A stretch of DNA of 64,000 bases from Bacteroidota bacterium (GCA_013360915.1 JABWAT010000009.1:3337-67336); one strand, 5' to 3'; counted from the first letter of the stretch, positions 1 through 62,713 are shown. The notes: generated by a model from the letters alone, not told the origin. Program-made: numbers and translations.

Positions 1-214
1 AGTCGCGACAGAAATATATATGGTACCTGTTTTAAAATGGAAAGCGGAGAAAGGGCCAGAGCTGTTGCAATGACGGCAAACTCCTTTCAGGGAGAAAGTT
101 TCGCTGACATAACTTGCACAACTTTAGTACGAAGATTTTCAATTTTTCATGATTGATTGTGCTGTGAAAAAGAGTAGATGGTAAGGCTGTTGTTGTAGTG
201 AGAAGGATAAAGGC

Positions 215-931
215 GTGAAGGCTCCAAGTGATAAAATGATTTGTGGACATTGTAAGGTACCAATTTATGCCGATTGGCAATATGGTTCTGTAATGGAAAT
301 ATCACCATCTAATGGATCATCTGATTTGTTTGGCTTCGCAAAGGGTGCTCAAATAACTTATATGGTTTGTCCTGGATGTCTTTTACCAATAATAGGGATC
401 CGATTAAGTGCAGATGTTACCTATAATTATCCGGACAATTGTTTAGATCTGGTTAATCTGATCGGTTTCACAATTGTATATCCTGGATTGAATAGCAACT
501 TACAAATTGATAAATATGTGCCAAGGGAATTTCTTGAGGATTATTTAGAGGCGAAAGAAGTAGAAAGAAGTCCAAAAGCATGTGCAGCTCTGCTGCGACG
601 GCTCCTTCAATTAGTACTAAGGAAGCACTTTAAGATTGAAAAAAGGAATTTGGAACAGGAAATTGGGGCATTCATAAAAGAACAAAGTCCACCGTCCTAT
701 TTGGTAACCTCGCTTGATGCGATTCGGACTGTTGGAAATTTTGCAGCTCATCCCATAAAAAGTGAAAATGCGGATAAAATCATAGAAGTTGAGCCAGGCG
801 AGGTGGATTGGCTATTCGCTGGAATTGAATCATTATTTGATTTCGCCTTTATACAACCAGCAATTCTTGAAGAGCGAAAACGGCAAATAAACAATAAACT
901 TGAGAGTGTTGGCAAAGGACCCTTGAAGTGA
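215..931 (+). CDS. Zn-ribbon (CxxC...CxxC) plus DUF4145-like domain protein; first gene of the AT-rich defence-like operon
   Basis: N-terminal CGHC...CPGC cysteine pairs. The C-terminal stretch LLRRLLQLVLRKHF...IRTVGNFAAHP...DWLFAGIESLFDF matches the DUF4145 pattern (R..GN.aaH) that is found fused to HsdR and Res endonucleases. Its TGA stop overlaps the GTG start of the next ORF. GC is low. Confidence 0.5.
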   Translation: MKAPSDKMICGHCKVPIYADWQYGSVMEISPSNGSSDLFGFAKGAQITYMVCPGCLLPIIGIRLSADVTYNYPDNCLDLVNLIGFTIVYPGLNSNLQIDKYVPREFLEDYLEAKEVERSPKACAALLRRLLQLVLRKHFKIEKRNLEQEIGAFIKEQSPPSYLVTSLDAIRTVGNFAAHPIKSENADKIIEVEPGEVDWLFAGIESLFDFAFIQPAILEERKRQINNKLESVGKGPLK

Positions 932-1518
932 CCCCAATTTCAGATTTCCCAACTGATATACAAGAAAACTATGAGCTCCATGAGTGGAAACATTCTATTG
1001 CGATTCTGAAGAATGACTTTCCTGATGAGTGGAACGATATTATAGATTTATTACGGTCATTCAAATTGAAGCGCACTTATATTACTACTCCGGGTGGTCG
1101 AAAGTCGGAAGTGGCAAACTATATTGATAAGTTCTTAGGGGATAGAGGTTGGGTAGAAAAGCAATTTCAAACATCGGTAATTGTTGATAGTTCTCGTTTG
1201 GATTCGCCTACCCATAAAGTAGATTGTTATAAAAATAGAATTGCACTTGAATTGGAATGGAACAACAAGGATCCATTTTTCGATCGGGACCTAAATAATT
1301 TTCGTTTGCTATTTGATCTAAGAGCAATTAGTGTTGGGGTAATTATAACAAGATGCGATGAACTTCAGGACATCTTCGATTCTCTTGGGCGGGGAAGTAG
1401 TTATGGATCATCAACTACGCACATGTCAAAATTGTTACCGAGGATTGAAGGGGGCGGTGGATCCGGGTGCCCTATTTTAGTTGTGGGAATTACGAAAAAT
1501 GTTTATGAGGAAGATTAA
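928..1518 (+). CDS. Type II restriction endonuclease, BamHI/BglII-like PD-(D/E)xK fold
   Basis: VDCYKNRIALELEWNNK...LLFDLRAISVGVIITR aligns to the BamHI catalytic core IDVYKEF...GMEFETGN...IDLAIILMP, giving the D...ExE motif. The start is GTG in a GTGA overlap with the upstream stop. The gene lies immediately upstream of a DNA methyltransferase. Confidence 0.55.
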   Translation: MTPISDFPTDIQENYELHEWKHSIAILKNDFPDEWNDIIDLLRSFKLKRTYITTPGGRKSEVANYIDKFLGDRGWVEKQFQTSVIVDSSRLDSPTHKVDCYKNRIALELEWNNKDPFFDRDLNNFRLLFDLRAISVGVIITRCDELQDIFDSLGRGSSYGSSTTHMSKLLPRIEGGGGSGCPILVVGITKNVYEED

Positions 1519-1519
1519 G

Positions 1520-2155
1520 ATGACAGCTGCCGAGGATTTTGCTCGTTTTATTGGCGATAGAAAATTTAAAACGATTTTAGCCGACCCGCCATGGCAATTT
1601 GAAAATCGCACTGGTAAAGTGGCCCCAGAGCACAAGCGCCTATCACGATATCCAACTTTATCGCTTCAAGAAATCTGCGAGATCCCTGTACAACTCTCAG
1701 CAGAAACACCATCTCATTTATACCTCTGGGTTCCTAATGCATTGCTCCCTGATGGCTTAGAAGTAATGAAGGCATGGGGTTTCCAGTATAAAGCAAATAT
1801 TGTGTGGCATAAAATACGGAAAGACGGTGGACCTGATGGACGAGGTGTTGGCTTTTACTTTAGGAACACAACAGAATTAATCCTGTTTGGGATAAGGGGT
1901 AAAATGAGAACTCTCGACCCAGGTAGAAGTCAGGTTAATATCATTAAAACAATGAAACAAGAACACTCAAGAAAACCAGACGAGCAATATAAACTCATCC
2001 AAGATTGTAGTCCTGGTCCATATCTCGAACTGTTTGGTCGTGGTGGCAGAAAGGGTTGGACAACATGGGGAAATCAAGCTGAGGAATACCAAATAGAATG
2101 GAATACTTACACAAATAACAGTTTAAAGGCTCCTGTTTTAAAGAAAGTCCTTTGA
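1520..2155 (+). CDS. MT-A70 family N6-adenine DNA methyltransferase (DPPW motif)
   Basis: ILADPPWQF catalytic motif and an MT-A70-like length of about 210 aa. The ATG at 1520 lies 2 nt after the restriction endonuclease stop, and the ORF-track start at 1481 is an in-frame upstream alternative. The stop overlaps the next start in an ATGA. Confidence 0.7.
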   Translation: MTAAEDFARFIGDRKFKTILADPPWQFENRTGKVAPEHKRLSRYPTLSLQEICEIPVQLSAETPSHLYLWVPNALLPDGLEVMKAWGFQYKANIVWHKIRKDGGPDGRGVGFYFRNTTELILFGIRGKMRTLDPGRSQVNIIKTMKQEHSRKPDEQYKLIQDCSPGPYLELFGRGGRKGWTTWGNQAEEYQIEWNTYTNNSLKAPVLKKVL

Positions 2156-2817
2156 TGAAAAATGATAGTCTAAAATGGATCATTCCTTCATCAATCGCCC
2201 TTATTATTGGCTTGATTGTAATTTCTTTTGTTCTTCAAATAATTGGAGTTAAGACTGATGTACTTGGCCAAAATGGAGATTTTATTGGTGGTTTTCTAAA
2301 CCCAATATTATCACTTTTTGTATTAATTATCTTATACAGCGATTTAAGACTTTCACGCGAAGACCTATCGGTAACGGCAAAGGCAGCGCAGGATCAAGCA
2401 AATTATTTGATGCCAAAGGAAAAGATTATAGCCTATCCTTTCTGTAAGTTTATGGATAGTGGAAATGGAATTATATTTTACATAAAATTATCAAATATTG
2501 GCATGGTTGAAGTATATGATTTAACAATCAAATTAGAAGTGCATGATTTGTCAAGGGATTGGGGAAAAATCGAACTACCAAAAGATAGGGTTTACAACCC
2601 AAAGATTTTGGCCCCCAAACAGGAAATTTCTTATTTATTGTTTGAAAGTAGATCTTCAATAATATACTCTAAGGCATTTGAAGGCTCAGCGCTTCACACC
2701 AGTATTTACGTTGATATAGATTACTATCTTAGTCCTCTTGAAGAGGAGAAAAATAAGCGTTCGATTTCGTTTGAGTTTAATCTTCATGATATCAAGGGGG
2801 CATTCCCAATAATATAA
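2152..2817 (+). CDS. Hypothetical 2-TM membrane protein, fourth gene of the restriction-modification-like operon
   Basis: Two N-terminal hydrophobic helices and an AT-rich codon composition. It is translationally coupled to the methyltransferase through an ATGA overlap. No recognisable domain. Confidence 0.45.
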   Translation: MMKNDSLKWIIPSSIALIIGLIVISFVLQIIGVKTDVLGQNGDFIGGFLNPILSLFVLIILYSDLRLSREDLSVTAKAAQDQANYLMPKEKIIAYPFCKFMDSGNGIIFYIKLSNIGMVEVYDLTIKLEVHDLSRDWGKIELPKDRVYNPKILAPKQEISYLLFESRSSIIYSKAFEGSALHTSIYVDIDYYLSPLEEEKNKRSISFEFNLHDIKGAFPII

Positions 2818-2918
2818 TTCTCCACAACTTTTCCACACCCCTACTGAACGCTTGAACAGTAGTTGGTGATGGGTTACTTTCACTGCCCCCGATCAATCAT
2901 AAACGAAAAGAGGTAACA

Positions 2919-3194
2919 GTGAATAGTCCCCAAATCTATTCTGTTTTGCTGGGCCTCGACTACCCTGAGTTGGGTCTGGCAAAGGAAGACTTTGTAGTCT
3001 TCAAAGTAACCGATCAGTTCACCTCAGGTGACCTGGTCATTCTGCAAACTGAGAATCCCGTCGCTTTTGCCCGCTGGTCGCCGAAGTGTGGTCCGGTGGT
3101 GGGCAAAGTCGTCACGGTGTATCGGCGAGTCTCCAGGCGGCCGTATGCGCTTAAATACAGAGAGCACCCGGCTGTGAGGATGATTGAAGCATAA
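2919..3194 (+). CDS. Small hypothetical protein, possibly a truncated S24 (LexA/UmuD-like) peptidase C-terminal fragment
   Basis: GTG start with an AGAGG Shine-Dalgarno 8 nt upstream. GDLVIL...PVVGKVVTVYRRV resembles the last beta-strands of S24 peptidases but lacks the catalytic Ser region. It is GC-rich, unlike the island. Confidence 0.3.
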   Translation: MNSPQIYSVLLGLDYPELGLAKEDFVVFKVTDQFTSGDLVILQTENPVAFARWSPKCGPVVGKVVTVYRRVSRRPYALKYREHPAVRMIEA

Positions 3195-3234
3195 ACAAAA
3201 AAGGCCACCGTGTTTGCGGTAGCCTTTATTTTTG
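3195..3234. terminator. Bidirectional rho-independent terminator
   Basis: GGCCACCG-tgtttg-CGGTAGCC hairpin flanked by an A-run and a T-run. It closes both the + ORF and the minus-strand tRNA-Ser unit. Confidence 0.5.
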
Positions 3235-3287
3235 ACACCCATTCTGACACCAATCGCTCGTAAGTGATTGAAAATCAATGGACTTTG

Positions 3288-3378
3288 CGGAGGGGGAGAG
3301 ATTCGAACTCTCGGTAGCGCTTTACAACACTACGACGGTTTAGCAAACCGTTGCCTTAAGCCTCTCGGCCACCCCTCC
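3288..3378 (-). tRNA. tRNA-Ser (anticodon GCU)
   Basis: Reverse-complement folds as GGAGGGG acceptor, 3-bp D-stem, anticodon loop TTGCTAA, long variable arm, T-loop TTCGAAT. Confidence 0.85.
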
Positions 3379-3393
3379 GGAATAACAAAAAAC

Positions 3394-3454
3394 AGTCAGA
3401 GTGGCCTGGCAACGGTTTCGTTGCCTTAATCCGGTCCTGCCGGACACCCCTCTG
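3394..3454 (-). pseudogene. Degenerate partial copy of tRNA-Ser(GCU): 5' half with the D-arm replaced by a TCCGGCAGGACCGGA hairpin, no anticodon loop
   Basis: AGAGGGGTG...TTAAGGCAACG matches tRNA-Ser positions 1-31 and is flanked by the direct repeat GGAATAACAAAAAACA (3379-3394 and 3454-3469). It contains a GGCAACGAAACCGTTGCC hairpin. Confidence 0.4.
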
Positions 3455-3477
3455 GAATAACAAAAAACAAAATCTTG

Positions 3478-3560
3478 CGGAGAGCGAGGGACTCGAACCC
3501 CCAAGTGCGCAAACACGGCAGTTTTCAAGACTGCTGCCTTACCAATTAGGCTAGCTCTCC
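3478..3560 (-). tRNA. tRNA-Ser (anticodon UGA)
   Basis: GGAGAGC acceptor, anticodon loop CTTGAAA, 16-nt variable arm, T-loop TTCGAGT. Confidence 0.8.
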
Positions 3561-3616
3561 GAAACAGGACTGCAAAAATAGGCCTGTGATCGGATGTTGT
3601 CAAAAAAATCGGACGA

Positions 3617-4510
3617 TCAGCCTTTGCTCAACGCTTCAGCACCCGACACAATTTCAAGGATTTCCTTGGTAATAGCGGCCTGCCGTAACTGATTATACGT
3701 CAGAGTCAGCGATTTCAGTAACGCCTTCGCATTTTCGGTGGCCGTATCCATGGCAGCCATCCGTGCACCATGTTCTGATGCAATGGATTCAAGAAAAATC
3801 TGCATGAGCAGTTGGGACAGATACAAAGGTACCACCCCTTCAAGGACCGCATTTGGATCAGGCTCGAAAATGTAATCGGCCTGGAAAGAGCCGGAGGCAT
3901 CAATTCCTTCGAGCGCTTCCGTCCGGATGGGAAGAAACTGATGGGTGGTTACTTTTGGGGTGACCACATTCTTGAACTCATTCGAAATGACAATTATGCG
4001 GTCATAGGTACCATTTTGATAATTCTGTACCAGGAAATCTCTGACCGAGCGGATATCACTCAGAGTCAGGTGCCCAAAAATTCCAGACCGGTAAAAGGGA
4101 ATTTTAAAGGCTCTGCGTCTGAAAAAGTCATAACCCACGCGACCCAGGGGAATGATGTCGAGGTTACCTGTGGTGGCCCAGCTTTTCAGATCGGTCTGAA
4201 TCATTCGCTGGGCATTTTTAATCAGGTTGCTGTTAAAAGACCCGCAAAGCCCCCGGTCCGCTGAAATGACGACCAGTGCAACCCGGTTAATGGATTCGCG
4301 GTCGTTAATCAGTGGGTTCTCGCTCACCCGTTCATCCAAAACCAGTTTACCGAGGAGATGATGAACATTCAGCGAATACGGACGGGCGGCCATCATGCTT
4401 TCCTGGGCTTTCCGCAGTTTAGATGCCGCAACCATTTTCATGGCTTTGGTAATCTGCTGGGTATTTTTAACCCCTTTGATCCGTTGACGGATGTCCCGTA
4501 AGGTTGCCAT
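3617..4510 (-). CDS. atpG: F0F1 ATP synthase gamma subunit
   Basis: MATLRDIRQRIKGVKNTQQITKAMKMVAASKLRKAQ N-terminus and a C-terminal helix typical of AtpG. Confidence 0.95.
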   Translation of the reverse strand: MATLRDIRQRIKGVKNTQQITKAMKMVAASKLRKAQESMMAARPYSLNVHHLLGKLVLDERVSENPLINDRESINRVALVVISADRGLCGSFNSNLIKNAQRMIQTDLKSWATTGNLDIIPLGRVGYDFFRRRAFKIPFYRSGIFGHLTLSDIRSVRDFLVQNYQNGTYDRIIVISNEFKNVVTPKVTTHQFLPIRTEALEGIDASGSFQADYIFEPDPNAVLEGVVPLYLSQLLMQIFLESIASEHGARMAAMDTATENAKALLKSLTLTYNQLRQAAITKEILEIVSGAEALSKG

Positions 4511-4516
4511 GGCGGA

Positions 4517-6088
4517 TTATTTCAGCTTTCTCTTGAAGTTATCGATAAACTCACGACCGGCTTTCTTCAGATCGCCTGCAACCTGATCGGTCAGAGCACC
4601 CTTCTTCAGTCCGGAAAGCAGGTCAGAATGACTGGTCTCGAGGTGAGCCAGAAATTCTTCTTCAAACTGACGGAGTGAAGCCACAGGAATTTCATCGAGC
4701 AAGCCTTGTGTGGCCACGAAAATAATAGCGATTTGCTTTTCGACAGGTACGGGAGAAAACTGATCCTGTTTGAGAATTTCAACCAGACGCTCACCACGAC
4801 GCAACTGAGCCTGAGTGGCCGCATCCAGATCGGACCCGAATTTGGCAAATGCGGCCAGTTCACGGTATTGAGCCAGATCGAGTTTAAGCGTTCCGGCCAC
4901 CTTTTTCATGGTCTTAATCTGTGCAGATCCGCCCACACGGGACACCGAAATACCCACGTTAATGGCCGGACGGATACCCGAGTTGAACAGGTTCGATTCG
5001 AGGAAAATCTGACCATCTGTAATGGAAATCACGTTGGTCGGAATGTAAGCCGATACGTCACCGGCCTGTGTTTCAATAATGGGAAGAGCTGTCAGTGAAC
5101 CACCACCCTTGACCTGATCCTTCAGTGAATCGGGCAGGTCATTCATGGTCTTGACCAGTTCGTCATTTTCGATCACCTTGGCTGCACGTTCGAGTAACCG
5201 TGAGTGCAGGTAAAAAACGTCACCCGGGTAGGCTTCCCGTCCGGGAGGACGACGGAGCAGCAGAGACACCTGGCGGTAGGCCACAGCGTGCTTGGACAAG
5301 TCATCATAAATACACAACACGTGACGGCCTGTATCGCGGAAGTATTCGCCAATGGTGACACCAGCATACGGTGCAAGATAAATCAGTGGCGCAGGGTCAG
5401 CTGCGGAAGCATTCACCACAATGGTGTATTCCATGGCACCATACCGTTCCAGAGTGGCAACAATTTCTGCAACCGTGGAAGCCTTTTGAGCGATGGCCAC
5501 ATAGATACAGATAACACCGGTTCCCTTCTGGTTGATAATGGTATCGAGGGCAATGGCGGTTTTTCCGGTCTGACGGTCTCCGATAATCAGCTCACGCTGA
5601 CCGCGGCCAATGGGAATCATGGCATCAATGGCTTTAATCCCGGTCTGAAGGGGCTCTTTCACCGGTTGGCGGTAGATTACACCGGGAGCCTTGCGCTCAA
5701 TGGGCATCTGGACGGTTCCCTTTACCGGTCCTTTGCCGTCAATGGGTTCACCGAGCGGATTCAGTACCCGGCCGATCATGGCTTCACCAACCATCAGGGA
5801 GGAAATTTTCTTCGTCCGTTTAACCCGGTCGCCTTCTTTCACCTGCTCGGAGTTTCCGAAAATAACCACTCCGACGTTGTCTTCTTCCAGGTTAAGCACC
5901 ATTCCTGTGATGCCGCCATCGAATTCGACAAGCTCTCCGGCCATTACTTTACTGAGTCCGTAGACACGGGCGATACCATCACCCACCTGAAGAACGGTGC
6001 CAACGTCATAAACATCGGTTTCGGCCTGCAGGCTGAGCAATTCTTTTTTCAGGATTGCAGATATTTCATCTGGTCTGACTTCTGCCAT
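4517..6088 (-). CDS. atpA: F0F1 ATP synthase alpha subunit
   Basis: Walker A GDRQTGKT and highly conserved AtpA sequence over 523 aa. Confidence 0.97.
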
Positions 6089-6102
6089 GGGAGTTTCCCT
6101 TA

Positions 6103-6636
6103 TTAATTCAAAAGTTTGGTTTTGATTACTTCCAGCTGGTTTTTCAGGCTGGAATCATAAACAGTATCATGTATTCTGACCACGAGTCCGCCCTTGATGG
6201 ACGGATCGATGCGGGGAACAAGAATGACGGTTTTGCCGGTTTTTTCCGACAGGTGTTTTTTTAACCGTGTGGCTTGTTCCTGACTGAGCGGAATGGCGGT
6301 GGTTGTTTCGGCCCGGATGATTCCGTTGGTTTCATCAATCAGCTCGAGTGCCCGTGTGATGATTGCGGCAAGAAAGGGTTCTCTTTTGTGTTTGGCCAGC
6401 AGATTCAGGGCCTGAAGGGTCACTTCAGACAATCCGGGCACGGCCTTTGAGAGAACGGCTATCTTCTTTTCGGGTGACAGCATCGGATTGGCAATCATAT
6501 CCGCGACCGGATGATCCGGTTGCAGCAGAGGAGCCAGTTTCCCGAAGTCACTGGTCAGGGCCTCAATGGCCTTTTGTTCTTTTGTCGCTTCTACGATGGC
6601 TTTCGCGTAGCGTAAAGCGATGGAATAATCACTCAT
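6103..6636 (-). CDS. atpH: F0F1 ATP synthase delta (OSCP) subunit
   Basis: Size and OSCP-like sequence; lies between atpF and atpA. Confidence 0.85.
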
Positions 6637-6638
6637 GG

Positions 6639-7157
6639 TCAGTTTTTCGACATGGAGTCGATTTCTTTGGTGATCAATGATTTGTTTTTCTCATCGGTCA
6701 GATTGGAATCGATGACCTTTTCAGCAATCTGAATAATGATGCCAACCATTTCCGTTTTCAGATTGGTCACCATTGCATACCGGTCGCGTTCGATCTCGGC
6801 GCGGGCAGCTGCGATGAGTTTTTCTGTTTCTTCTTTGGTTTTGACCATGCCATCATGTCTGATCTTTTCGGCCGCCTGACGGGCATCCTTGATAATGGCA
6901 TCGGCCTTTTCATTGGCTTCTGCAAGAATCTGGTCGAAACGGGCCATGATTTTAGCTGCTTCTTCCTTGGATTCCTCGGCCTTCCGGATGGCCATGTCAA
7001 TCCGGCGTTCACGCTCCTCGAGCGCAGTGGTGATGGGTTTCCAGGCCAGCTTGTACAGCAGTCCGGAAACAATCAGAAAGGTGACCAGTACCCAGAAAAT
7101 GGTGCCGGTGTGCGGATCCAGCAGTCCGCCTTCCAGTAAGAATAATGCCAAAGTCAT
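6639..7157 (-). CDS. atpF: F0F1 ATP synthase B subunit
   Basis: Single N-terminal TM helix followed by a long charged coiled coil. Position in the operon. Confidence 0.8.
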   Translation of the reverse strand: MTLALFLLEGGLLDPHTGTIFWVLVTFLIVSGLLYKLAWKPITTALEERERRIDMAIRKAEESKEEAAKIMARFDQILAEANEKADAIIKDARQAAEKIRHDGMVKTKEETEKLIAAARAEIERDRYAMVTNLKTEMVGIIIQIAEKVIDSNLTDEKNKSLITKEIDSMSKN

Positions 7158-7250
7158 ACGTCAGTCCACTTGATCAGGTTAATGGGTAATCCGCCGGAGG
7201 AGTCGTTGTTAAACAGTTTCCCCTGACCGGCGGTTCAACGCCAGGTAGAA

Positions 7251-7481
7251 TCACTTGAAGATGAGCAGGAACCCGATCACCTCGGCAATCAGGGCAACCC
7301 CTTCAATCAGCGCAGCGAACAGAATGGCTGTACCGCGCAGAGAGCCGGCGAGTTCGGGCTGACGGGCACTGGCTTCCATAGCAGAGGCGGCCAGTTTACC
7401 GATACCGATACCGGCACCGATAGCGGCCAGACCAGCTCCGATGCCTGCGCCCAAGTAAGCTCCAAATAATCCAGTTTCCAT
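7251..7481 (-). CDS. atpE: F0F1 ATP synthase C subunit
   Basis: GAGIGAG...AASAMEASARQPE...LIEGVALIA hairpin proteolipid. Confidence 0.9.
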   Translation of the reverse strand: METGLFGAYLGAGIGAGLAAIGAGIGIGKLAASAMEASARQPELAGSLRGTAILFAALIEGVALIAEVIGFLLIFK

Positions 7482-7514
7482 TTGAGACCTCCAGTTGTAA
7501 GTAGTGTTGAGTAA

Positions 7515-8438
7515 TTAGTGATGCGGGGCAGGTTCTTCCACTGCCATTCCGATAAAGGCTGCTGAGAGCAGGGTGAAAACATAGGCCTGGATCAGACAGA
7601 CCAGTACTTTGATCATATAAATGAAAACGGCCAGCAGGATGGCAATGGGTGCTACTGCATAGGTGCCGATGATAAAGATCAGACCGATAAAAGTAAGAAT
7701 GACGAGGTGACCACCACTCATGTTGGCAAATAACCGCACTGCCAGAGCAAACGGTTTGGTGAACATGCCCAGAATTTCAACCGGGACCATGATCGGATAC
7801 AGGGCCAGCGGGACATGTGGTGTGAAGATGTGCTGCCAGTAAGTTTTCTTTGCACTGAAATGAATAATAAAAAAGGTGCAGAGGGCCAGAGCGGCGGTCA
7901 CATTGATATCGCCGGTGATGGCGGCGCCATAGGGCATCAGTCCCATGTAATTCGATACCAGAATGAAGAAGAATACCGACAGCAGATAGGGCATGAATTT
8001 CTTGTAGGCATGTTCCCCGATCATGGGAATGGCGATGTCGTTCCTGATAAACTCCACCAGAAGTTCCATCAGGTTGCCCAGGCCTTTCGGAGCAAAATAC
8101 CCATCGGGTCTTTTCCGGTAAGCTGCTCCGGCTGTAATTCCCAGAATGAGGACGATCAGCGAATTCAGCCACAGAAACACAGAATGCTTGGTGGGTGATA
8201 AATCCAGTTCAAACGAACCAATCCGGATTGGTTCCCAGGTCGGAAGGTGGATGGTGGTAAAGGGTTCGAGGTCAATGGTTTTTCCGTTGACCACGTGGTG
8301 CATGATAAAGTCGGTCTTGTTTCCGCCTTCGCCTCCGCCAGCCAGTGCTGGTGTGGAGTTGGCGACCAGCAATGAGATCGCCATCAGGAATAGGAAAAAT
8401 GGTGTTTTCATGGTTGTGTCTGCCGGTATAAAAACCAA
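7515..8438 (-). CDS. atpB: F0F1 ATP synthase A subunit (probable true start MKTPFF at 8411)
   Basis: Conserved AtpB C-terminal helices (LAVRLFANMSGGH). Starting at 8411 gives an ATGA overlap with the upstream gene. Confidence 0.9.
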   Translation of the reverse strand: MVFIPADTTMKTPFFLFLMAISLLVANSTPALAGGGEGGNKTDFIMHHVVNGKTIDLEPFTTIHLPTWEPIRIGSFELDLSPTKHSVFLWLNSLIVLILGITAGAAYRKRPDGYFAPKGLGNLMELLVEFIRNDIAIPMIGEHAYKKFMPYLLSVFFFILVSNYMGLMPYGAAITGDINVTAALALCTFFIIHFSAKKTYWQHIFTPHVPLALYPIMVPVEILGMFTKPFALAVRLFANMSGGHLVILTFIGLIFIIGTYAVAPIAILLAVFIYMIKVLVCLIQAYVFTLLSAAFIGMAVEEPAPHH

Positions 8439-8767
8439 ACGTCAATGGTTGTGTAGGCACAATAAAAGCCGATGAGCGACAGTCCGGATGCCATCAGACT
8501 TAACTGTCCGTTTTTTGCAATTATAATAAGAACGAGAGCGACTACCATCATTTTAACCAGCAATCCGATGCTGATCAGGGCGATGGTGCCCTGCATCCCC
8601 GATTTTCTGATCACCAGCCACCCGGCGAGCCCGTTCAGCAGGGCCAGTCCGCCCATGACCAGGTTTCCGGTCAGAAGCTCTGATTGATAGTCCGGCAGAA
8701 GCAAGCCGGGGAGTAAGCCAGCACCTGCAATGATTGCCAATGCAAGCAGAAACCGTTTCAGCGTCAT
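8408..8767 (-). CDS. atpI: ATP synthase protein I-like membrane protein
   Basis: Small 4-TM protein immediately upstream of atpB; assignment rests on position and size. Confidence 0.4.
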   Translation of the reverse strand: MTLKRFLLALAIIAGAGLLPGLLLPDYQSELLTGNLVMGGLALLNGLAGWLVIRKSGMQGTIALISIGLLVKMMVVALVLIIIAKNGQLSLMASGLSLIGFYCAYTTIDVWFLYRQTQP

Positions 8768-9000
8768 TGATCCCCAAACCGCTTTTTAATGATTCGTTTC
8801 AGATTGGCCCAGGCCGAATACATTCCACCAAGAAATCCGATGATGGTAAATGCAAAGGGCGTTCCGGCGAGGGTATCGATCAGATACCCGATCAGGCCGA
8901 AGGCCAGCAGATTGATGACGATCTGAGAACTGATTTCTCCGTAAAAAGCCAGATCTTTTGCCAGATCGGACCGGTCATTTTTTGGTTTCGGGTCCTGCAT
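8764..9000 (-). CDS. atpZ: AtpZ family (putative F0F1-ATPase-associated membrane protein)
   Basis: 78 aa, 2 TM helices, YGEISSQIV...LIG motif resembling PF09527. First gene of the atp operon. Confidence 0.5.
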   Translation of the reverse strand: MQDPKPKNDRSDLAKDLAFYGEISSQIVINLLAFGLIGYLIDTLAGTPFAFTIIGFLGGMYSAWANLKRIIKKRFGDQ

Positions 9001-9349
9001 GAGTTCCCGGTTGTGTCATTGAACAGGTTCCGTCGAAGGAGGCCCCTTCTTCAATAATCAGCTTTTTAGTGAACAGATCACCCTGAAATACCGATGTGGA
9101 TTCCAGCACGGTTCTTTCGGATATCACGACCTTACCGGTGATTTTCCCGCCGGAAACGAGGGATTTTGATTCAATATTGCCGCTGATCTCTCCTGAAGGT
9201 CCCAGCAAGAGGCCGCCGTCGGCTTTCAGGTCCCCGTTCAGTTTGCCATCAAGTCTGATATTGCCCTTGCTGGTAATGGTTCCCACGATGGTGGTGCTCA
9301 CATTGATCCAGTTTCCGTCTGCAGGATGTCCGTTGGTTGTTTTCGACAT
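8975..9349 (-). CDS. Bactofilin family cytoskeletal protein
   Basis: Repetitive beta-helix pattern (IVGTITSKGNIRLDGKLNGDLKADGGLLLGPSGEISGNIESKSLVSGGKITGKVVIS) typical of DUF583 (CcmA family). Confidence 0.75.
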   Translation of the reverse strand: MSKTTNGHPADGNWINVSTTIVGTITSKGNIRLDGKLNGDLKADGGLLLGPSGEISGNIESKSLVSGGKITGKVVISERTVLESTSVFQGDLFTKKLIIEEGASFDGTCSMTQPGTHAGPETKK

Positions 9350-38914: not shown

Positions 38915-38989
38915 TACCGAAGGAGGGATTCGAACCCCCGACACATGGATTATGATTCCATTGTCCGGCCGCTGCCGGACTACTTCGGA
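38915..38989 (-). ncRNA. tRNA-like element copy 2: identical to tRNA(CAU) except G1 to T and a D-arm replaced by a perfect 7-bp hairpin GTCCGGC-agcg-GCCGGAC
   Basis: A base-by-base comparison with the 39062-39135 tRNA finds the acceptor 3' strand, U8, A9, the anticodon arm (loop ATCATAA, anticodon CAU), the variable loop and the T-arm all identical. Confidence 0.5.
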
Positions 38990-39012
38990 CTAATAACGGG
39001 CAGGCAGTTGTC

Positions 39013-39045
39013 AAAAAAAAAGGCGGAATCTGATCCGCCTTTTTT
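39013..39045 (-). terminator. Terminator GGCGGA-atctga-TCCGCC between tRNA(CAU) and tRNA-like copy 2
   Basis: Hairpin flanked by A9 and T6 runs. Confidence 0.6.
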
Positions 39046-39061
39046 GTGAGTCTGCTTTCTG

Positions 39062-39135
39062 TACCGAAGGAGGGATTCGAACCCCCGACACATGGATTAT
39101 GATTCCATTGCTCTAACCGACTGAGCTACTTCGGC
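39062..39135 (-). tRNA. tRNA with CAU anticodon, canonical cloverleaf (elongator Met, or tRNA-Ile2 substrate of TilS)
   Basis: GCCGAAG acceptor, D-arm GCTCAGTCGGTTAGAGC, anticodon loop ATCATAA, T-loop TTCGAAT. Confidence 0.85.
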
Positions 39136-39172
39136 AAAAGAAAAATGGAATCGGTCAGATTCCATTTTTTTT
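39136..39172 (-). terminator. Terminator TGGAATC-ggtca-GATTCCA after tRNA-fMet
   Basis: Perfect 7-bp stem with a T8 run. Confidence 0.6.
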
Positions 39173-39173
39173 G

Positions 39174-39246
<73 letters not shown>

Positions 39247-49878: not shown

Positions 49879-50672
49879 TATAACTTCCGGCTGAATAAGC
49901 TTTTACTGTTCAGAAAGATCCGGTCAGCCAGATTGGCCGGTCCAACATGATGAATCCGCTCGGTCGTGTTCATTTTCGGGCTCAGTTTGTTGGCCGGATT
50001 TATTCCGGCGTTAAAAAGCTTCGAGTAATCGACGAGCACATCAAACGTAGAAGTCTTACCAGCCTCCACTACAAAGGTGGTTTTGGTCCCTGTGAATGAA
50101 GCCAATGAAACGGGTAGTTTCCGCGTGTCTTCACCCACATGGTAGGAAATGGAAATGGACTTTCCGACCGAATCAACCGTGCCTTCAATTTTGTGGAAAA
50201 TATAGCCAGGATTCCACGACCAGTACATGCCGGAAGCAGTTCCCAGCGGCGATGTTTGGGTGGATGCATCCTTGTGGTTTTCTGAGTAGGGAATCCCAAC
50301 CGAGAATTTCACTCCACGATAGATTCCTGGCTTTCCTTCCAGTTCAACGGTTACTTTCCCGTTGGTACCCGATTGGCTGAAATCAACCATGAAAATGCCA
50401 TCTGCCGCATGATCTGTTCCGAATGAATCGACCAAAGCGATTTCCGAGATGTAAAATTTCAGGGTTGAAAAGGAAACAGTATCACCTGCACCGGTCACAT
50501 ACTTTGTTCCCAGTTGAAGTTCAGAGGAACCAAACATGGCATCAAAGGTCAGGTTGACGTGAGTATGAACATGATCATCATCATCGTCTTCTGATTCTGT
50601 GGAGGAATCACAGGAAACGATTAACGATGAAATCAGAAAAATGGACAGAAAGGTATAAATGGGTTTTTTCAT
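49878..50672 (-). CDS. Lipoprotein with an acidic/His-rich N-terminus (DDDDDHVHTH), partner of the peroxidase
   Basis: Lipobox (IVSC). Real start MKKPIY at 50672. The start overlaps the CCP gene. Confidence 0.4.
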   Translation of the reverse strand: MKKPIYTFLSIFLISSLIVSCDSSTESEDDDDDHVHTHVNLTFDAMFGSSELQLGTKYVTGAGDTVSFSTLKFYISEIALVDSFGTDHAADGIFMVDFSQSGTNGKVTVELEGKPGIYRGVKFSVGIPYSENHKDASTQTSPLGTASGMYWSWNPGYIFHKIEGTVDSVGKSISISYHVGEDTRKLPVSLASFTGTKTTFVVEAGKTSTFDVLVDYSKLFNAGINPANKLSPKMNTTERIHHVGPANLADRIFLNSKSLFSRKL

Positions 50673-50784
50673 ATGTGTTAAAAAAAATAGGTGAAATCCG
50701 GACCAAATACCCGGAAATGAAGGGTGTTCGAATTCCGGCACCATTGGTGCGGAATGTCATTCTGTTCAGAGATTGAGTGAAAGA

Positions 50785-51174
50785 TCAGGCGTGATCGGGA
50801 GGAGGGGATTCCGGAGAAACCGTACGACGAAGTAACCTTGAAATTAAATAAAGCGGAATTGTGCTTTGCTTCTCGCTAAACCGGTTTGAAGGAGAAATCA
50901 GGAGTATAACCGGATCGGTCTTGTCCTTGATTTTAAAATCCTGTTTACTGCTGATGGGTCTTGCCGGTTCGGATTGTGTTTCTTTTTCAATTTGTTTGCT
51001 CAGGTAACACTTTCCATTACACTCAACCACCACTTTCTCACAGACTGTTTCGCTGATTTCCTTCTGGTTAAACGAAAACCAGAAGGTCAGCCAGGCAACG
51101 GAATTGATCTGAATGAACAGAACCAATATTGTCAGGACCGCAGTCAGACGTGTATGAAATTGAAGACCTTGCAT
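50785..51174 (-). CDS. Hypothetical membrane-anchored protein
   Basis: ORF with N-terminal hydrophobic helix; weak support. Confidence 0.25.
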   Translation of the reverse strand: MQGLQFHTRLTAVLTILVLFIQINSVAWLTFWFSFNQKEISETVCEKVVVECNGKCYLSKQIEKETQSEPARPISSKQDFKIKDKTDPVILLISPSNRFSEKQSTIPLYLISRLLRRTVSPESPPPDHA

Positions 51175-51280
51175 AACCGAAAATAGCTTGTCGGATGATT
51201 GAAACTCAATAAGGGTGTCAACCCAGTTCCGAAAAGGGTGAACTGGTAAACAGGGTTGGACGACCTTTAAACCACATCTT

Positions 51281-60905: not shown

Positions 60906-61736
60906 ATGGCGACTCTCGATTGGGAACAACTAAAAATGGCTCACCTCGTATGGCGGATCAATTTCCGGTCCATGCTAAGCGGCGGGTCTGGAAAACTGGA
61001 AAGCATTCAGGTCAAAGACCATACACAGTGCGAAATGGGCAAGTGGTTACATGGGGAAGGCATGGCCAAGTATGCTTCCAACCCCATGTTTATGGATCTG
61101 GTGGCCTATCATAAGGGTTTCCATGAAATGGCAGCCAAAGCCTATGGTCATTACATTTCGAAAGAAACCCATGAGGCCAATGAATGTCTGGCAAAGATCA
61201 CCGATCACTCCAACACACTCATGGAAATCATTGATCAATTTAAAGTGATTGCCAGTCCTTCATTGGCTTCACCCTCTTCTCCCGAACCCGCAGATCTGGC
61301 CATTGAATGGAAAAAAGAATATGAAATCGGAGTCAGCCAGATCGATGAACAGCATAAGTCTCTGGTGAATGTGATCAATCGTCTGTGGCTGGCCATTAAA
61401 AACAGAAATGCCACTCATGAAATTGCCGAGATAATCCATACACTGGAAGACTATACCCGGGTTCATTTTGCGGCCGAAGAAGTTATGCTCGAAACAGTGG
61501 GTTATTCCGATCTTGCCGGACATAAGAAAAAACATGCCGAGTTTATTGCCTACCTTTCCGACTACCGGAAACAGGCTGCTGCCGGTTCAAAGGACTTTAT
61601 GGGGTTGTATGAGTACCTCGGAAAATGGCTGATCAGTCATATTCAGAAGTCGGACCGGAACTATATGGATGAAATCAACAGGAAGAAAACCCCGGTGGAA
61701 ACCGGATTTTTTGCCAAAATATTTAAGAAAATCTGA
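60906..61736 (+). CDS. CZB (chemoreceptor zinc-binding) domain plus bacteriohemerythrin-domain protein
   Basis: AHLVW...CEMGKW...YHKGFHE matches the CZB signature Hxx[WFYL]...Cx[LM]GxW...HxxxH. The C-terminal half (WKKEYEIGVSQIDEQHKSLVNVINRL, then H/E/D ligands) matches hemerythrin. Confidence 0.6.
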   Translation: MATLDWEQLKMAHLVWRINFRSMLSGGSGKLESIQVKDHTQCEMGKWLHGEGMAKYASNPMFMDLVAYHKGFHEMAAKAYGHYISKETHEANECLAKITDHSNTLMEIIDQFKVIASPSLASPSSPEPADLAIEWKKEYEIGVSQIDEQHKSLVNVINRLWLAIKNRNATHEIAEIIHTLEDYTRVHFAAEEVMLETVGYSDLAGHKKKHAEFIAYLSDYRKQAAAGSKDFMGLYEYLGKWLISHIQKSDRNYMDEINRKKTPVETGFFAKIFKKI

Positions 61737-61747
61737 TAGAAAATTTT

Positions 61748-62713
61748 ATGAAAAACGAAAAAAAATCCACCTCATTGGTTGTACTGTTTATTGATGATGA
61801 ACCTACCCAGCATCTGGTGATGGATAAAGTGCTGAGTCCGTTGGGCGTAATGGTTATTCATGCCAACAGTGTGCAGGAAGGGGTCGATAAACTGAAAACG
61901 GTTCAGGTAAACCTGATTCTGACCGATATTCACATGGAAGGGATGGATGGACTTTCGTTTCTGGCGGTTCTGAAAAAAGACAGGAAACTGAACAAAATTC
62001 CGGTGGTCGTGATAACTGGCGATACCTCGAGTGAAAAATCGAAACTGGCCTACGATCAGGGTGCAGTTGGGTTTGTGACCAAACCTGTCCAGCAGGATGA
62101 CATGGCCCATCTGGTACGCACTTTCGCAGCTTTTGGTGATATTTATGAAACCACTGAGGATACCGACGAATTTTACCTTCGCAAAAAACATAAACTCACG
62201 ACCACGCTGGCAAAGGATTCGCTGGAGCGGAATTTACCAAAAGCCATGGCCAACTACCTGAACGGACTGAAGGACATTTACGATTTTTCCGTGATTGGGT
62301 ACTATGAAAAGCAGGCCGATGGTTCCTTTGGACTGGCCAGTGAAGTCGGTGATATCCTTCTGATGGAGGATCTCAGAAAGGTCAATCCTTCCGACTATTC
62401 ACAGGTTGCCCGCATGCTCAGTGAAGCAGATGAGGTGTTCAGTAATGACTTATTGCGTACCCCATCACCCCTTTTAAAGGTATGGGCCAATCATTACAGT
62501 CTGGTGAGTGAAGTATTGCTCCCGTTTTTCCGGGTTGATGACCGCGCGTTTGCCGTGGGTGCCGGCAGCAACCGGAAAAATCTTGCAATCACCGGGTTTT
62601 TCTGGGGATTCCGGAGCAGCCTTTTTACCACCCGTGAAGCCGATTTTATCAAACGGCTGTCCGATCAGGCCAATCCGATTCTGTATTCCCTGCTCAGCGC
62701 CTCCAAGCGTTAA
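61748..62713 (+). CDS. Response regulator: REC domain plus a C-terminal output domain of unknown type (GAF-like?)
   Basis: DDEP...D(I)HMEGMDG...K receiver motifs. Confidence 0.7.
   Translation: MKNEKKSTSLVVLFIDDEPTQHLVMDKVLSPLGVMVIHANSVQEGVDKLKTVQVNLILTDIHMEGMDGLSFLAVLKKDRKLNKIPVVVITGDTSSEKSKLAYDQGAVGFVTKPVQQDDMAHLVRTFAAFGDIYETTEDTDEFYLRKKHKLTTTLAKDSLERNLPKAMANYLNGLKDIYDFSVIGYYEKQADGSFGLASEVGDILLMEDLRKVNPSDYSQVARMLSEADEVFSNDLLRTPSPLLKVWANHYSLVSEVLLPFFRVDDRAFAVGAGSNRKNLAITGFFWGFRSSLFTTREADFIKRLSDQANPILYSLLSASKR

Follow-up and report, generated by a model that had tools for sequence, protein, structure and literature searches.

An AT-rich string of defence-type genes beside two tRNA-Ser genes of a Bacteroidota bacterium is probably a mosaic island of independent modules

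Results

The window analysed here, a stretch of 64,000 nucleotides from a Bacteroidota bacterium, begins with AT-rich genes on the + strand, among them the four complete ORFs 215-931 (ORF1), 928-1518 (ORF2), 1520-2155 (ORF3) and 2155-2817 (ORF4). An earlier description of this DNA (the sequence-only reading) had called the first ~2.8 kb much more AT-rich than the rest and horizontally acquired, and both statements were borne out. The GC content is 0.385 for ORF1, 0.386 for the restriction endonuclease (REase) gene ORF2, 0.417 for the methyltransferase (MTase) gene ORF3 and 0.332 for ORF4, that is 33-42%, against 0.507 (50.7%) in the remaining window (3201-64000), where 700-nt windows varied with a standard deviation of 0.025 and none of the 601 had a GC content of 0.40 or less. 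The AT-richness of the island is real and far exceeds local variation. The GC step is sharp and adjoins two tRNA-Ser genes, which argues for horizontal acquisition. The view of the block as a four-gene unit did not hold: a fifth AT-rich gene of the same strand, coding for a SIR2-like protein (GC 0.349), is cut by the left edge of the window. The gene calls were identical on 18 independent metagenome contigs, and identical five-gene contigs were present in at least 10 sequencing runs.

The genes had been thought to overlap by 4 nt at each junction. This was found between ORF1 and ORF2 (GTGA, 928-931), the only GTGA junction of the block, but not at the other two. The stop codon of ORF2 (TAA, 1516-1518) and the called ATG of ORF3 at 1520 are separated by a 1-nt gap; there is a long form of ORF3 (1481-2155), and in-frame alternative ATGs at 1499 and 1505 overlap ORF2, neither of them forming an ATGA with the ORF2 stop. 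The stop codon of ORF3 (TGA, 2153-2155) overlaps the ATG of ORF4 at 2155 by 1 nt, or forms a TTGA with the alternative ORF4 start, TTG at 2152. Because of the GTGA overlap, the 1-nt gap and the 1-nt overlap, the modules are physically linked in their expression at this locus. The terminator and promoter scan, whose coverage does not extend to Bacteroidota promoters, revealed on the + strand between 156 and 3194 no site comparable to the hairpin at 3200-3227 described below. The tight packing and the lack of an internal terminator suggest that the modules are probably co-transcribed. Rfam searches of the island, the leader of the downstream small ORF and the rest of the window detected only tRNAs. 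No att-like direct repeats were found at the island ends, where the sole end-to-end repeat was the similarity between two paralogous small ORFs.

On its right the AT-rich block ends at the leader of one of these small ORFs (2818-2918, + strand), which has an intermediate GC content of 0.446. It is conserved with positions 7434-7536 of L091, a related genome, and in blastn the segment 2818-3037 was 66% identical to L091 7434-7655. The small ORF itself (2919-3194, + strand) codes for 91 amino acids, has a host-like GC content of 0.529 and gave no family hit in the searches. In L090 and L091, homologues of it stand in front of ORF4-like genes, and a paralogue upstream of the SIR2-like gene ends 6 nt before the start of that gene. 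Behind the small ORF the terminator scan detected a strong hairpin (3200-3227; 11 bp, 6 G-C pairs, T-rich on both sides), which, of the sites that follow the + strand genes, is the only one that convincingly resembles an intrinsic terminator. Then follow, all on the - strand, a tRNA-Ser (GCU) gene whose 3' end faces the island (3287-3378), a tRNA-Ser (UGA) gene (3477-3560), and atpG and atpA, 61% and 86% identical, respectively, to L091 genes annotated ATP-synt. This arrangement points to a variable hotspot by the tRNA-Ser and atp genes, with copies of the conserved small ORF on either side.

ORF1 (215-931, + strand) codes for a zinc ribbon and a DUF4145 domain, as the sequence-only reading had stated. 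The N-terminal Cys4 zinc ribbon has the form CxxC...CxxC (C10, C13, C52 and C55). Profile searches matched DUF4145 (PF13643; E 1.9e-12, 47.5 bits, cutoff 23.1) and the PADLOC model PD-T7-4 (PDLC04109; E 1.1e-15, 55.7 bits), the latter partially, over profile positions 60-162 of 211. In the PDB, ORF1 matched 9y9c (RAZR) with an E value of 5e-6 as a single sequence and of 4.7e-16 as a family profile. RAZR is a ring-activated zinc-finger RNase of E. coli, which assembles around phage portal or Gp77 rings, cleaves ssRNA and produces an abortive-infection phenotype (Nature 2026, PMC13017515). It is encoded by a single gene that protects from its own promoter, and its residues R146 and H154 are essential (PMC13017515). 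The R-x7-H motif of ORF1 (RTVGNFAAH), previously suspected to be HEPN-related, aligns on RIVGNQAVH of RAZR, with R171 and H179 at the positions of the catalytic pair R146/H154. Among 33 homologues of ORF1 the four cysteines, R171 and H179 are invariant, and variability is highest in the segment separating the two Cys pairs; the sensor domain of RAZR is likewise reported as variable (PMC13017515). M8 is invariant as well, most homologues beginning with it, and the true start of ORF1 is probably the ATG at 236.

ORF1 resembles RAZR in its size class (~220-240 aa), in the succession of N-terminal Cys4 zinc ribbon, conserved linker and DUF4145 HEPN domain with R-x7-H, and in that its family appears to stand alone in genomes; a CPHC equivalent to an ORF1 Cys pair is present in 9y9c. 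The similarity to E. coli RAZR is nevertheless remote: the alignable part comprises the linker and the HEPN core (9y9c residues 55-155), and the zinc-ribbon domain gave no significant alignment to RAZR-Ec. ORF1 also differs from RAZR in its host, a Bacteroidota metagenome-assembled genome, and in the overlap of its stop codon with the first codon of a REase gene. Judged by these features, ORF1 is a RAZR/PD-T7-4-type protein with putative RNase activity and a putative 24-mer assembly. The abortive-infection type that had been assigned to it agrees with this classification, RAZR being a proven abortive-infection RNase.

ORF2 (928-1518, + strand) codes for a Type II REase of the BglII/BstYI family. 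It matched PF09195 with an E value of 1.7e-46 over profile positions 3-163 of 163, and the acidic motif D-X8-E-X-E (VDCYKNRIALELE) could be read from the translation. There are at least 8000 relatives, the best of them 71-79% identical and some named 'BglII/BstYI family type II restriction endonuclease'. A phmmer search of the PDB returned no BglII or BstYI chain, only spurious UvsW matches with E > 0.1; the family assignment rests on Pfam. The term 'BamHI-like', used before for this REase, is correct at the level of fold or superfamily, but the Pfam family is that of BglII (PF09195) and not BamHI's own. The description of ORF3 (1520-2155, + strand) as an MT-A70 methyltransferase was confirmed: it codes for a permuted MT-A70-type DNA MTase with a DPPW motif, which matched Pfam MT-A70 (E 4.7e-28), PADLOC MTase_II (E 5.9e-90) and, in the PDB, MT-A70 and METTL3 structures. 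The MT-A70 clade has been linked to the MTases of BglII systems (PMC4738411).

REase and MTase genes were adjacent in all 80 related loci, and in 76 of these the MTase gene came immediately after the REase gene in the same orientation. The two proteins are 57-81% identical to those of cassettes from many phyla. DNA homology to related cassettes is confined to 943-2122, within the restriction-modification (R-M) pair, and the upstream neighbours of the related cassettes examined were unrelated housekeeping genes. The full-length PF09195 match, the acidic motif and the R-then-M order are as in BglII/BstYI-family R-M systems with an MT-A70 MTase; unlike related systems, this cassette has a further defence-type gene on each side. 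No gene for a controller (C) protein was visible. On these features the pair ORF2-ORF3 is a Type II R-M system of the ordinary, self-contained sort, the MTase being the predicted cognate of the REase. Palindrome avoidance was also considered as a guide to the recognition site and was abandoned: in 61 kb of host sequence AGATCT, GGATCC, RGATCY and TGATCA were not depleted, nor was any other hexamer containing GATC, and nothing could be assigned to the REase. What avoidance there was in the window consisted of a general avoidance of CTAG and a few absent palindromes.

ORF4 (2155-2817, + strand) codes for a membrane protein of 220 aa, which belongs to a rare subfamily (~7 clusters at 50% identity). 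The protein, for which a structure prediction was made, begins with a hairpin of two transmembrane (TM) helices that carries the AbiC/AbiP-type motif GQNGDFIGGFLNP; a long helix comes next, and the C-terminal part (~ residues 90-210) is an Ig-like β-sandwich. As the sequence-only reading had noted, this 2-TM protein lacks a known domain: there was no direct Pfam or PADLOC hit, including putAbiC (PF16872). When profiles were compared by hhalign, the N-terminal module matched that of putAbiC/AbiC/AbiP-type proteins with 99.4% probability (E 2e-21, 83 columns), both alignments being drawn from ORF4 hits. With AbiC/AbiP (PF16872; lactococcal Abi membrane proteins) it has in common WG.FGD(F/Y).GG.LNP..S followed by a long polar helix, and with AbiC the two TM helices; the motif GD(F/Y)xGGxLNP is invariant. 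Unlike AbiC/AbiP, ORF4 is devoid of the family's defining part, the α-helical putAbiC domain outside the membrane. The putAbiC model maps to the C-terminal region of the relatives, and in AbiP this extra-membrane domain binds nucleic acid, whereas ORF4 has the Ig-like β-sandwich in its place. Both genes flanking the R-M pair are thus of defence type, as had been supposed, ORF1 being of the RAZR kind and ORF4 sharing its membrane module with AbiC/AbiP.

Other searches with ORF4 were negative. A word-seeded homologue search returned ORF4 itself only, tblastn against plasmids returned nothing, and a search of viral folds (BFVD) gave only TM scores up to 0.38, to generic membrane or β proteins. 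A Kir/KirBac channel was rejected as a candidate: the two TM helices have neither a pore helix or loop nor a selectivity filter between them, and equal scores were obtained with generic Ig-like folds. Five contexts of the subfamily were informative, and two of the five were defence neighbourhoods. An ORF4-like gene directly follows N6_N4_Mtase and ResIII genes, an R-M-like pair (L093-L096), another lies by AAA_15-RloB and HNH genes in an integrase element, and a third occupies the same tRNA-Ser/atp position in L091, where RAZR-like and R-M genes are missing. ORF4 has the lowest GC content of the island genes and its counterpart in L091 is also AT-rich; ORF4 therefore behaves as acquired DNA. 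It is the only really uncharacterised part of the island and most likely acts alone as a candidate membrane-level anti-phage factor.

The SIR2-like gene, whose 3' end occupies positions 1-156 (+ strand), codes for 314 aa and lies at 101-1045 of L001, position 890 of which is position 1 of the window. GAGAS, TFNYD and IIHVYG motifs are readable in the protein, like the GAGxS Rossmann start, the NYD and the His-x-(Y/H)-Gly of SIR2_2 defence proteins, and it has weak matches to SIR2_2 and to PADLOC SIR2 models. Its score against Pfam SIR2_2 (PF13289) was 22.2 bits (cutoff 24.5), and that of a homologue in L130, 25.4 bits, was above the cutoff. Relatives on plasmids carry the annotation 'SIR2 family protein'. 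Relatives lie near restriction or mobile genes, and in L130 one directly follows an R-M cassette of the same kind. SIR2 effectors that may serve for comparison are Thoeris ThsA, DSR and SIR2-HerA; unlike the named SIR2 systems, the protein of this island has 314 aa only, no recognised sensor or partner domain and a score under the Pfam cutoff, and it could not be assigned to any of them. It is presumably a stand-alone NAD-consuming effector with a putative anti-phage role. A two-gene system formed with the RAZR-like gene was dismissed, a SIR2-like relative being present in none of 80 RAZR-like loci.

Co-occurrence was surveyed from both sides. Among 80 loci of close REase relatives the MT-A70 partner was found in all, a RAZR-like gene in none and an ORF4-like gene in none; the survey reached more than 800 bp upstream in 56 loci and more than 800 bp downstream in 45. 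Conversely, relatives of the REase, MTase, ORF4 or SIR2-like protein of the window were not found within ±8 kb of the RAZR-like gene in any of 80 loci, contrary to the idea of conserved neighbourhoods joining this gene to R-M genes, and a census of its neighbours in 80 genomes showed them to be heterogeneous, with no recurrent partner or R-M family. Neither 80-locus survey contained a second occurrence of the whole combination. The proposal that an R-M system is hard-wired here to an Abi or membrane effector is not supported, in view of the reciprocal absence (0/80 and 0/80), of the DNA homology stopping at the pair and of ORF4-like genes occurring alone, one of them at the same hotspot in L091. 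Since an ORF4-like gene follows the R-M-like pair in L093-L096 and a SIR2-like gene follows the cassette in L130, a loose recurrent association with R-M does exist.

Discussion

The AT-rich string is probably a mosaic, a defence island whose modules are independent, and not a composite system. Each module occurs elsewhere without the others, which argues for a typical defence island and against a new hard-wired system. The locus would be a small horizontally acquired island beside the two tRNA-Ser genes and the atp operon, carrying independent modules on one strand. The SIR2-like protein would act on its own, presumably by consuming NAD. By analogy with RAZR, the zinc ribbon of ORF1 may sense a ring-shaped phage structural protein, for example the portal, and ORF1 may polymerise round the ring, upon which its HEPN RNase (R171/H179) would cut cellular RNAs and bring about abortive infection. 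The BglII/BstYI-family REase would cut unmethylated sites, with the MT-A70 adenine methylase (DPPW) protecting the host. ORF4 appears to reuse the 2-TM module of AbiC/AbiP together with an Ig-like β-sandwich, which is probably cytoplasmic. Tight packing and the lack of an internal terminator would result in shared expression, not in a shared mechanism.

That ORF1 with its Zn ribbon and HEPN domain, the R-M pair and the 2-TM protein ORF4 make up one obligate machine appears highly improbable, and so does its more detailed form, in which the RNase or the membrane protein would be the effector when restriction senses a phage or fails against it. The same-strand, tightly packed genes, the GTGA between ORF1 and the REase gene and the lack of an internal terminator speak for such a machine, and DUF4145 has been listed as 'in operon with R-M' and as fused to REase and helicase modules (Anantharaman et al. 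2013). These points are outweighed by the zero co-occurrence in 80 R-M loci and in 80 ORF1-like loci, by cassette homology that ends exactly at the R-M borders, by protection through RAZR alone from its own promoter (PMC13017515), and by the related genome L091, whose ORF4-like gene occupies this hotspot unaccompanied by the others. It is similarly very unlikely that selection holds the SIR2-like, RAZR-like, R-M and ORF4 genes together as an integrated multi-layer unit, or that within such a unit the RNase and ORF4 are suicide effectors held in reserve, with their dosage or activation governed by the R-M pair. If this were true, membrane Abi effectors with an Ig-like sensor domain would form a new class, to which ORF4 would belong. 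Functional interplay in this lineage is possible; evolutionary linkage was not seen in the loci compared.

A co-regulated operon, in which the mechanisms are independent, one transcript is kept by selection and synergy may arise, is rather unlikely, as is the division of labour that would go with it, restriction being the first line, abortive infection the back-up and the addictive R-M system the element that stabilises the island. The common strand, the minimal spacing, the single terminator after the small ORF, the defence-type nature of every module and the identical five-gene contigs from at least 10 sequencing runs would suit such an operon, but there is no sign that the arrangement predates this lineage, and no second occurrence was found. 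There is, finally, a minor but appreciable chance that ORF4 is not a defence protein but a resident membrane protein of the hotspot (for superinfection exclusion, of the envelope or channel-like) beside which cassettes have landed. This is opposed by its GC content, the lowest in the island (0.332), and its AT-rich L091 counterpart, by the N-terminal module common to AbiC/AbiP-type proteins (99.4% probability in hhalign), by the two defence neighbourhoods among the five informative contexts, and by the lack of a pore-loop or selectivity-filter sequence. An island of independent modules, ORF4 included, is the reading that we prefer.

The locus illustrates how a compact, overlapping, AT-rich string of defence genes can mimic a new composite system, while reciprocal synteny resolves it into autonomous modules, as is normal for defence islands. 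ORF4 defines a rare subfamily in which the AbiC/AbiP membrane module is joined to an Ig-like domain. With ORF1, the RAZR architecture is extended to a distinct and widespread clade, found in many phyla, in which the catalytic residues and zinc ligands are all conserved.

Layout and composition of the AT-rich block

Four co-directional ORFs on the + strand open the window: ORF1 (215-931), ORF2 (928-1518, the REase), ORF3 (1520-2155, the MTase) and ORF4 (2155-2817, with an alternative TTG start at 2152). The same structure was obtained in independent gene calls on 18 short metagenome contigs encoding identical proteins. As noted from the sequence alone, the genes are strongly AT-rich, with GC contents of 0.385, 0.386, 0.417 and 0.332, respectively, against 0.507 in the other 61 kb, where none of 601 700-nt windows was at or below 0.40 (sd 0.025). 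Of the 4-nt overlaps proposed for all three junctions, the one between ORF1 and ORF2 (GTGA, 928-931) was found, and the other two were not. ORF2 ends with TAA at 1516-1518 and the called ATG of ORF3 is at 1520, whereas the TGA of ORF3 (2153-2155) and the ATG of ORF4 (2155) have one base in common; this junction becomes TTGA if ORF4 starts at TTG 2152.

The unit is not limited to the four genes originally described. The left edge of the window cuts a fifth, equally AT-rich gene of the same strand (+), which ends at window position 156 and is complete on the metagenome contig L001. It encodes a SIR2-like protein of 314 aa (GC 0.349) and starts 6 nt past the stop codon of a small ORF of normal GC content. 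Thus, the AT-rich block extends from the SIR2-like start to the ORF4 stop (approximately 3.6 kb, five genes). It is bordered on either side by sequence of 51-53% GC, and two tRNA-Ser genes and atpG/atpA come after it on the opposite strand. The only convincing hairpin with a T-tract on this stretch is at 3200-3227, past a small ORF (2919-3194); none was detected between any of the five AT-rich genes. A promoter scan, whose models do not cover Bacteroidota promoters, gave counts equal to the shuffled expectation. The island genes probably share one transcription unit.

The left ends of four contigs from several sequencing runs (L001, L003, L005 and L006) fall within ~50 nt of one another, ~100 nt ahead of the SIR2-like gene; the right end of L001 corresponds to window 3181, and no such contig exceeds 4.1 kb. 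The clustered breaks suggest that the island is present in some strains and absent from others, or that its borders contain a repeat. Elsewhere, the window contains a three-tRNA cluster (38915-39246, - strand) and two mildly AT-rich spots (50300-51200 and 61100-62000, GC about 0.42-0.44) whose genes look ordinary: one set comprises a cytochrome-c-peroxidase-like gene with a lipoprotein and a small membrane ORF beside it, the other a response regulator and a hemerythrin-like protein. These spots are unconnected with the defence island.

ORF1 is a RAZR-type protein

The DUF4145 similarity suggested for ORF1 was borne out by profile search (Pfam, E = 1.9e-12). ORF1 also matched the PADLOC model PD-T7-4 (E = 1.1e-15) and the PDB entry 9y9c ('DUF4145 domain-containing protein', 24 chains; E = 5e-6); with a profile of 33 homologues the latter match, over the linker and the HEPN core, improved to E = 4.7e-16. 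Characterisation of PD-T7-4 showed it to be RAZR, an RNase combining a zinc finger with a HEPN domain, which builds a 24-mer on the portal or Gp77 rings of phages, cuts ssRNA and makes infection abortive; it acts as a single gene, R146 and H154 are essential, and the zinc-finger domain is the variable determinant of specificity (PMC13017515). The proposed R-x7-H motif of ORF1 (RTVGNFAAH) aligns with RIVGNQAVH of RAZR. The original call of this HEPN motif has thereby gained experimental meaning. Across the aligned family, C10, C13, C52, C55, R171 and H179 are all invariant, and the most variable segment lies between the Cys pairs. Because M8 is also invariant and is the first residue in most homologues, ATG 236 is the likelier start of ORF1.

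Relatives of ORF1 were collected from 80 genomic loci (Bacteroidota, Cyanobacteria, Chloroflexota, Acidobacteriota, Planctomycetota, Firmicutes, Proteobacteria and one archaeon). Relatives of the REase, the MTase, ORF4 or the SIR2-like protein were present within ±8 kb in none of them. A Pfam census of the immediate neighbours (66 upstream and 76 downstream ORFs) did not reveal any partner that recurs, nor any R-M family in the families listed; the sole repeats were Ro60/TROVE (4) and RtcB (2), and single defence-type neighbours included DarT, Schlafen-AlbA_2 and CHAT. Such heterogeneity is consistent with a stand-alone system. DUF4145 has been described as occurring 'in operon with R-M' (PMC3710099), a statement that refers to DUF4145 at large, HsdR/Res-type fusions included, and not to the zinc-ribbon clade of ORF1. 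The Ro60/TROVE gene lies immediately upstream of the RAZR-like gene in L010, L011, L012 and L057 (Chryseobacterium, Flavobacteriales; ~6190-7880), and RtcB is found upstream in another two loci. Genes for RNA repair or quality control beside a defence RNase could be meaningful, e.g. as damage control or antagonism.

ORF2 and ORF3 form an autonomous R-M cassette

Along its entire length, ORF2 matched the Pfam BglII endonuclease family (E = 1.7e-46); it contains D-X8-E-X-E. ORF3 is an MT-A70 enzyme (Pfam) with a DPPW motif, matching PADLOC MTase_II (E = 5.9e-90) and, in the PDB, MT-A70 and METTL3. The MT-A70 clade has been placed by Iyer et al. within a prokaryotic radiation that takes in BglII-system methylases (PMC4738411). 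Relatives of the REase are very numerous (at least 8000 matches, part of them named BglII/BstYI family), and the best of them, 71-79% identical, come from unrelated phyla.

All 80 metagenome loci examined that carry a relative of the REase (57-78% identical) also encode an MT-A70 homologue, in 76 cases immediately downstream on the same strand. RAZR-like and ORF4-like genes were found in none of the 80, and a SIR2-like gene in one. More than 800 bp of flank was available upstream of the pair in 56 and downstream in 45 of these loci; the upstream genes examined were unrelated housekeeping genes. Since DNA homology to related cassettes is confined to window 943-2122 and the pair occurs together in all 80 loci, the mobile unit is exactly R plus M.

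Palindrome avoidance gave no recognition site for the REase, GATC-containing hexamers not being depleted. CTAG, by contrast, shows a strong deficit in window 3201-64000, with 3 sites where 17.4 were expected, and several hexamer palindromes are absent where ~15 would be expected from base composition; ACGCGT and TACGTA are also below a Markov expectation of 2.6. This shortage could stem from a general avoidance of CTAG or from additional R-M systems of this genome.

In the metagenome contig L130 (2168-4427 for cassette and gene together), the single SIR2-like gene of the R-M survey is immediately past the same BglII/MT-A70 cassette. Its product (25% identity over 283 aa) scores above the SIR2_2 cutoff; the SIR2-like protein of the island, with the motifs GAGAS, TFNYD and IIHVYG, is near threshold (22.2 bits, cutoff 24.5). 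Relatives on Rhizobium plasmids bear the annotation 'SIR2 family protein', and on plasmid At of Agrobacterium fabrum C58 (L180, 4986-8268) a gene annotated 'restriction endonuclease' is found two genes downstream of a relative. A loose SIR2-like/R-M association is possible.

ORF4 and its hotspot

ORF4, described as a 2-TM protein without known domain, indeed matched nothing in Pfam, PADLOC or NCBIfam, and the sole hit of a word-seeded search was ORF4 itself, from an MAG that NCBI labels Bacteroidetes bacterium. Exhaustive phmmer against 1.84 billion representatives detected 54 weak relatives, most over residues ~5-90 only, sharing WG.FGD(F/Y).GG.LNP..S. Among 52 aligned sequences (ORF4 and 51 relatives) 18 matched Pfam putAbiC, 11 PADLOC AbiC and 8 AbiP, the putAbiC model falling on a C-terminal region absent from ORF4. 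ORF4 clusters with six proteins (211-245 aa) having a β-rich domain with an (E/S)NIG...Y motif in place of this region. Profile-profile comparison of this subfamily with the putAbiC-type proteins gave 99.4% probability (E = 2e-21) over the N-terminal 83 columns only, a partly circular result because both sets were taken from ORF4 matches. AbiC and AbiP are lactococcal membrane Abi proteins without assigned mechanism; unlike ORF4, AbiP has a domain through which it binds nucleic acid (PMC13064643).

In a related genome (L091; AtpA 86%, AtpG 61% identical) the small ORF is followed by the ORF4-like gene, tmRNA, tRNA-Ser(GCU), tRNA-Ser(UGA) and the atp operon. The location corresponds to the hotspot of the window, and no RAZR-like, R-M or SIR2-like gene is present. 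The tmRNA gene (8738-9084, - strand) has its 3' end toward the variable genes; the tmRNA 3' end is a classic island-integration site. No tmRNA was found in window 1-8000. The small ORF (77-99 aa, normal GC content, no family match), with a conserved leader of ~100 nt, recurs at the hotspot (window 2818-3194, L001 1-94, L091 7434-7770, L090 333-632). One copy stops 6 nt short of the SIR2-like gene, and a second is located past ORF4; in L090 and L091 it immediately precedes the ORF4-like gene. As the AT-rich cassettes stop exactly at the leader start, small ORF and leader may mark cassette boundaries, or be a regulator.

Other ORF4-like genes follow, on the same strand, a 1061-aa N6_N4_Mtase and a 1016-aa ResIII/DEAD helicase (L093-L096, e.g. 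L093 1318-10354); two unknown proteins (197 and 346 aa) come next, and this could be an uncharacterised multi-gene defence locus. In L097/L098 the gene is inside an integrase-bearing element near AAA_15-RloB and HNH genes, and in L092 and L181 it is amid housekeeping genes or adjoins an IS110 transposase. ORF4-like genes thus live in variable, often defence-rich DNA, independently of this R-M cassette and of RAZR.

A probable mosaic defence island

At the level of domains the sequence-only reading was good. Its proposal of an R-M system hard-wired to an Abi or membrane effector fails in both directions of the synteny comparison, the 80 R-M loci and the 80 ORF1-family loci. The best explanation of the AT-rich block is a mosaic defence island, in which a RAZR-type RNase and a selfish Type II R-M cassette would stand beside a SIR2-like gene and an AbiC/P-related membrane protein, and which would have been acquired horizontally at the tRNA-Ser/atp hotspot. 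Apart from the ORF4 subfamily and the hotspot with its flanking small ORFs, its components belong to known kinds.
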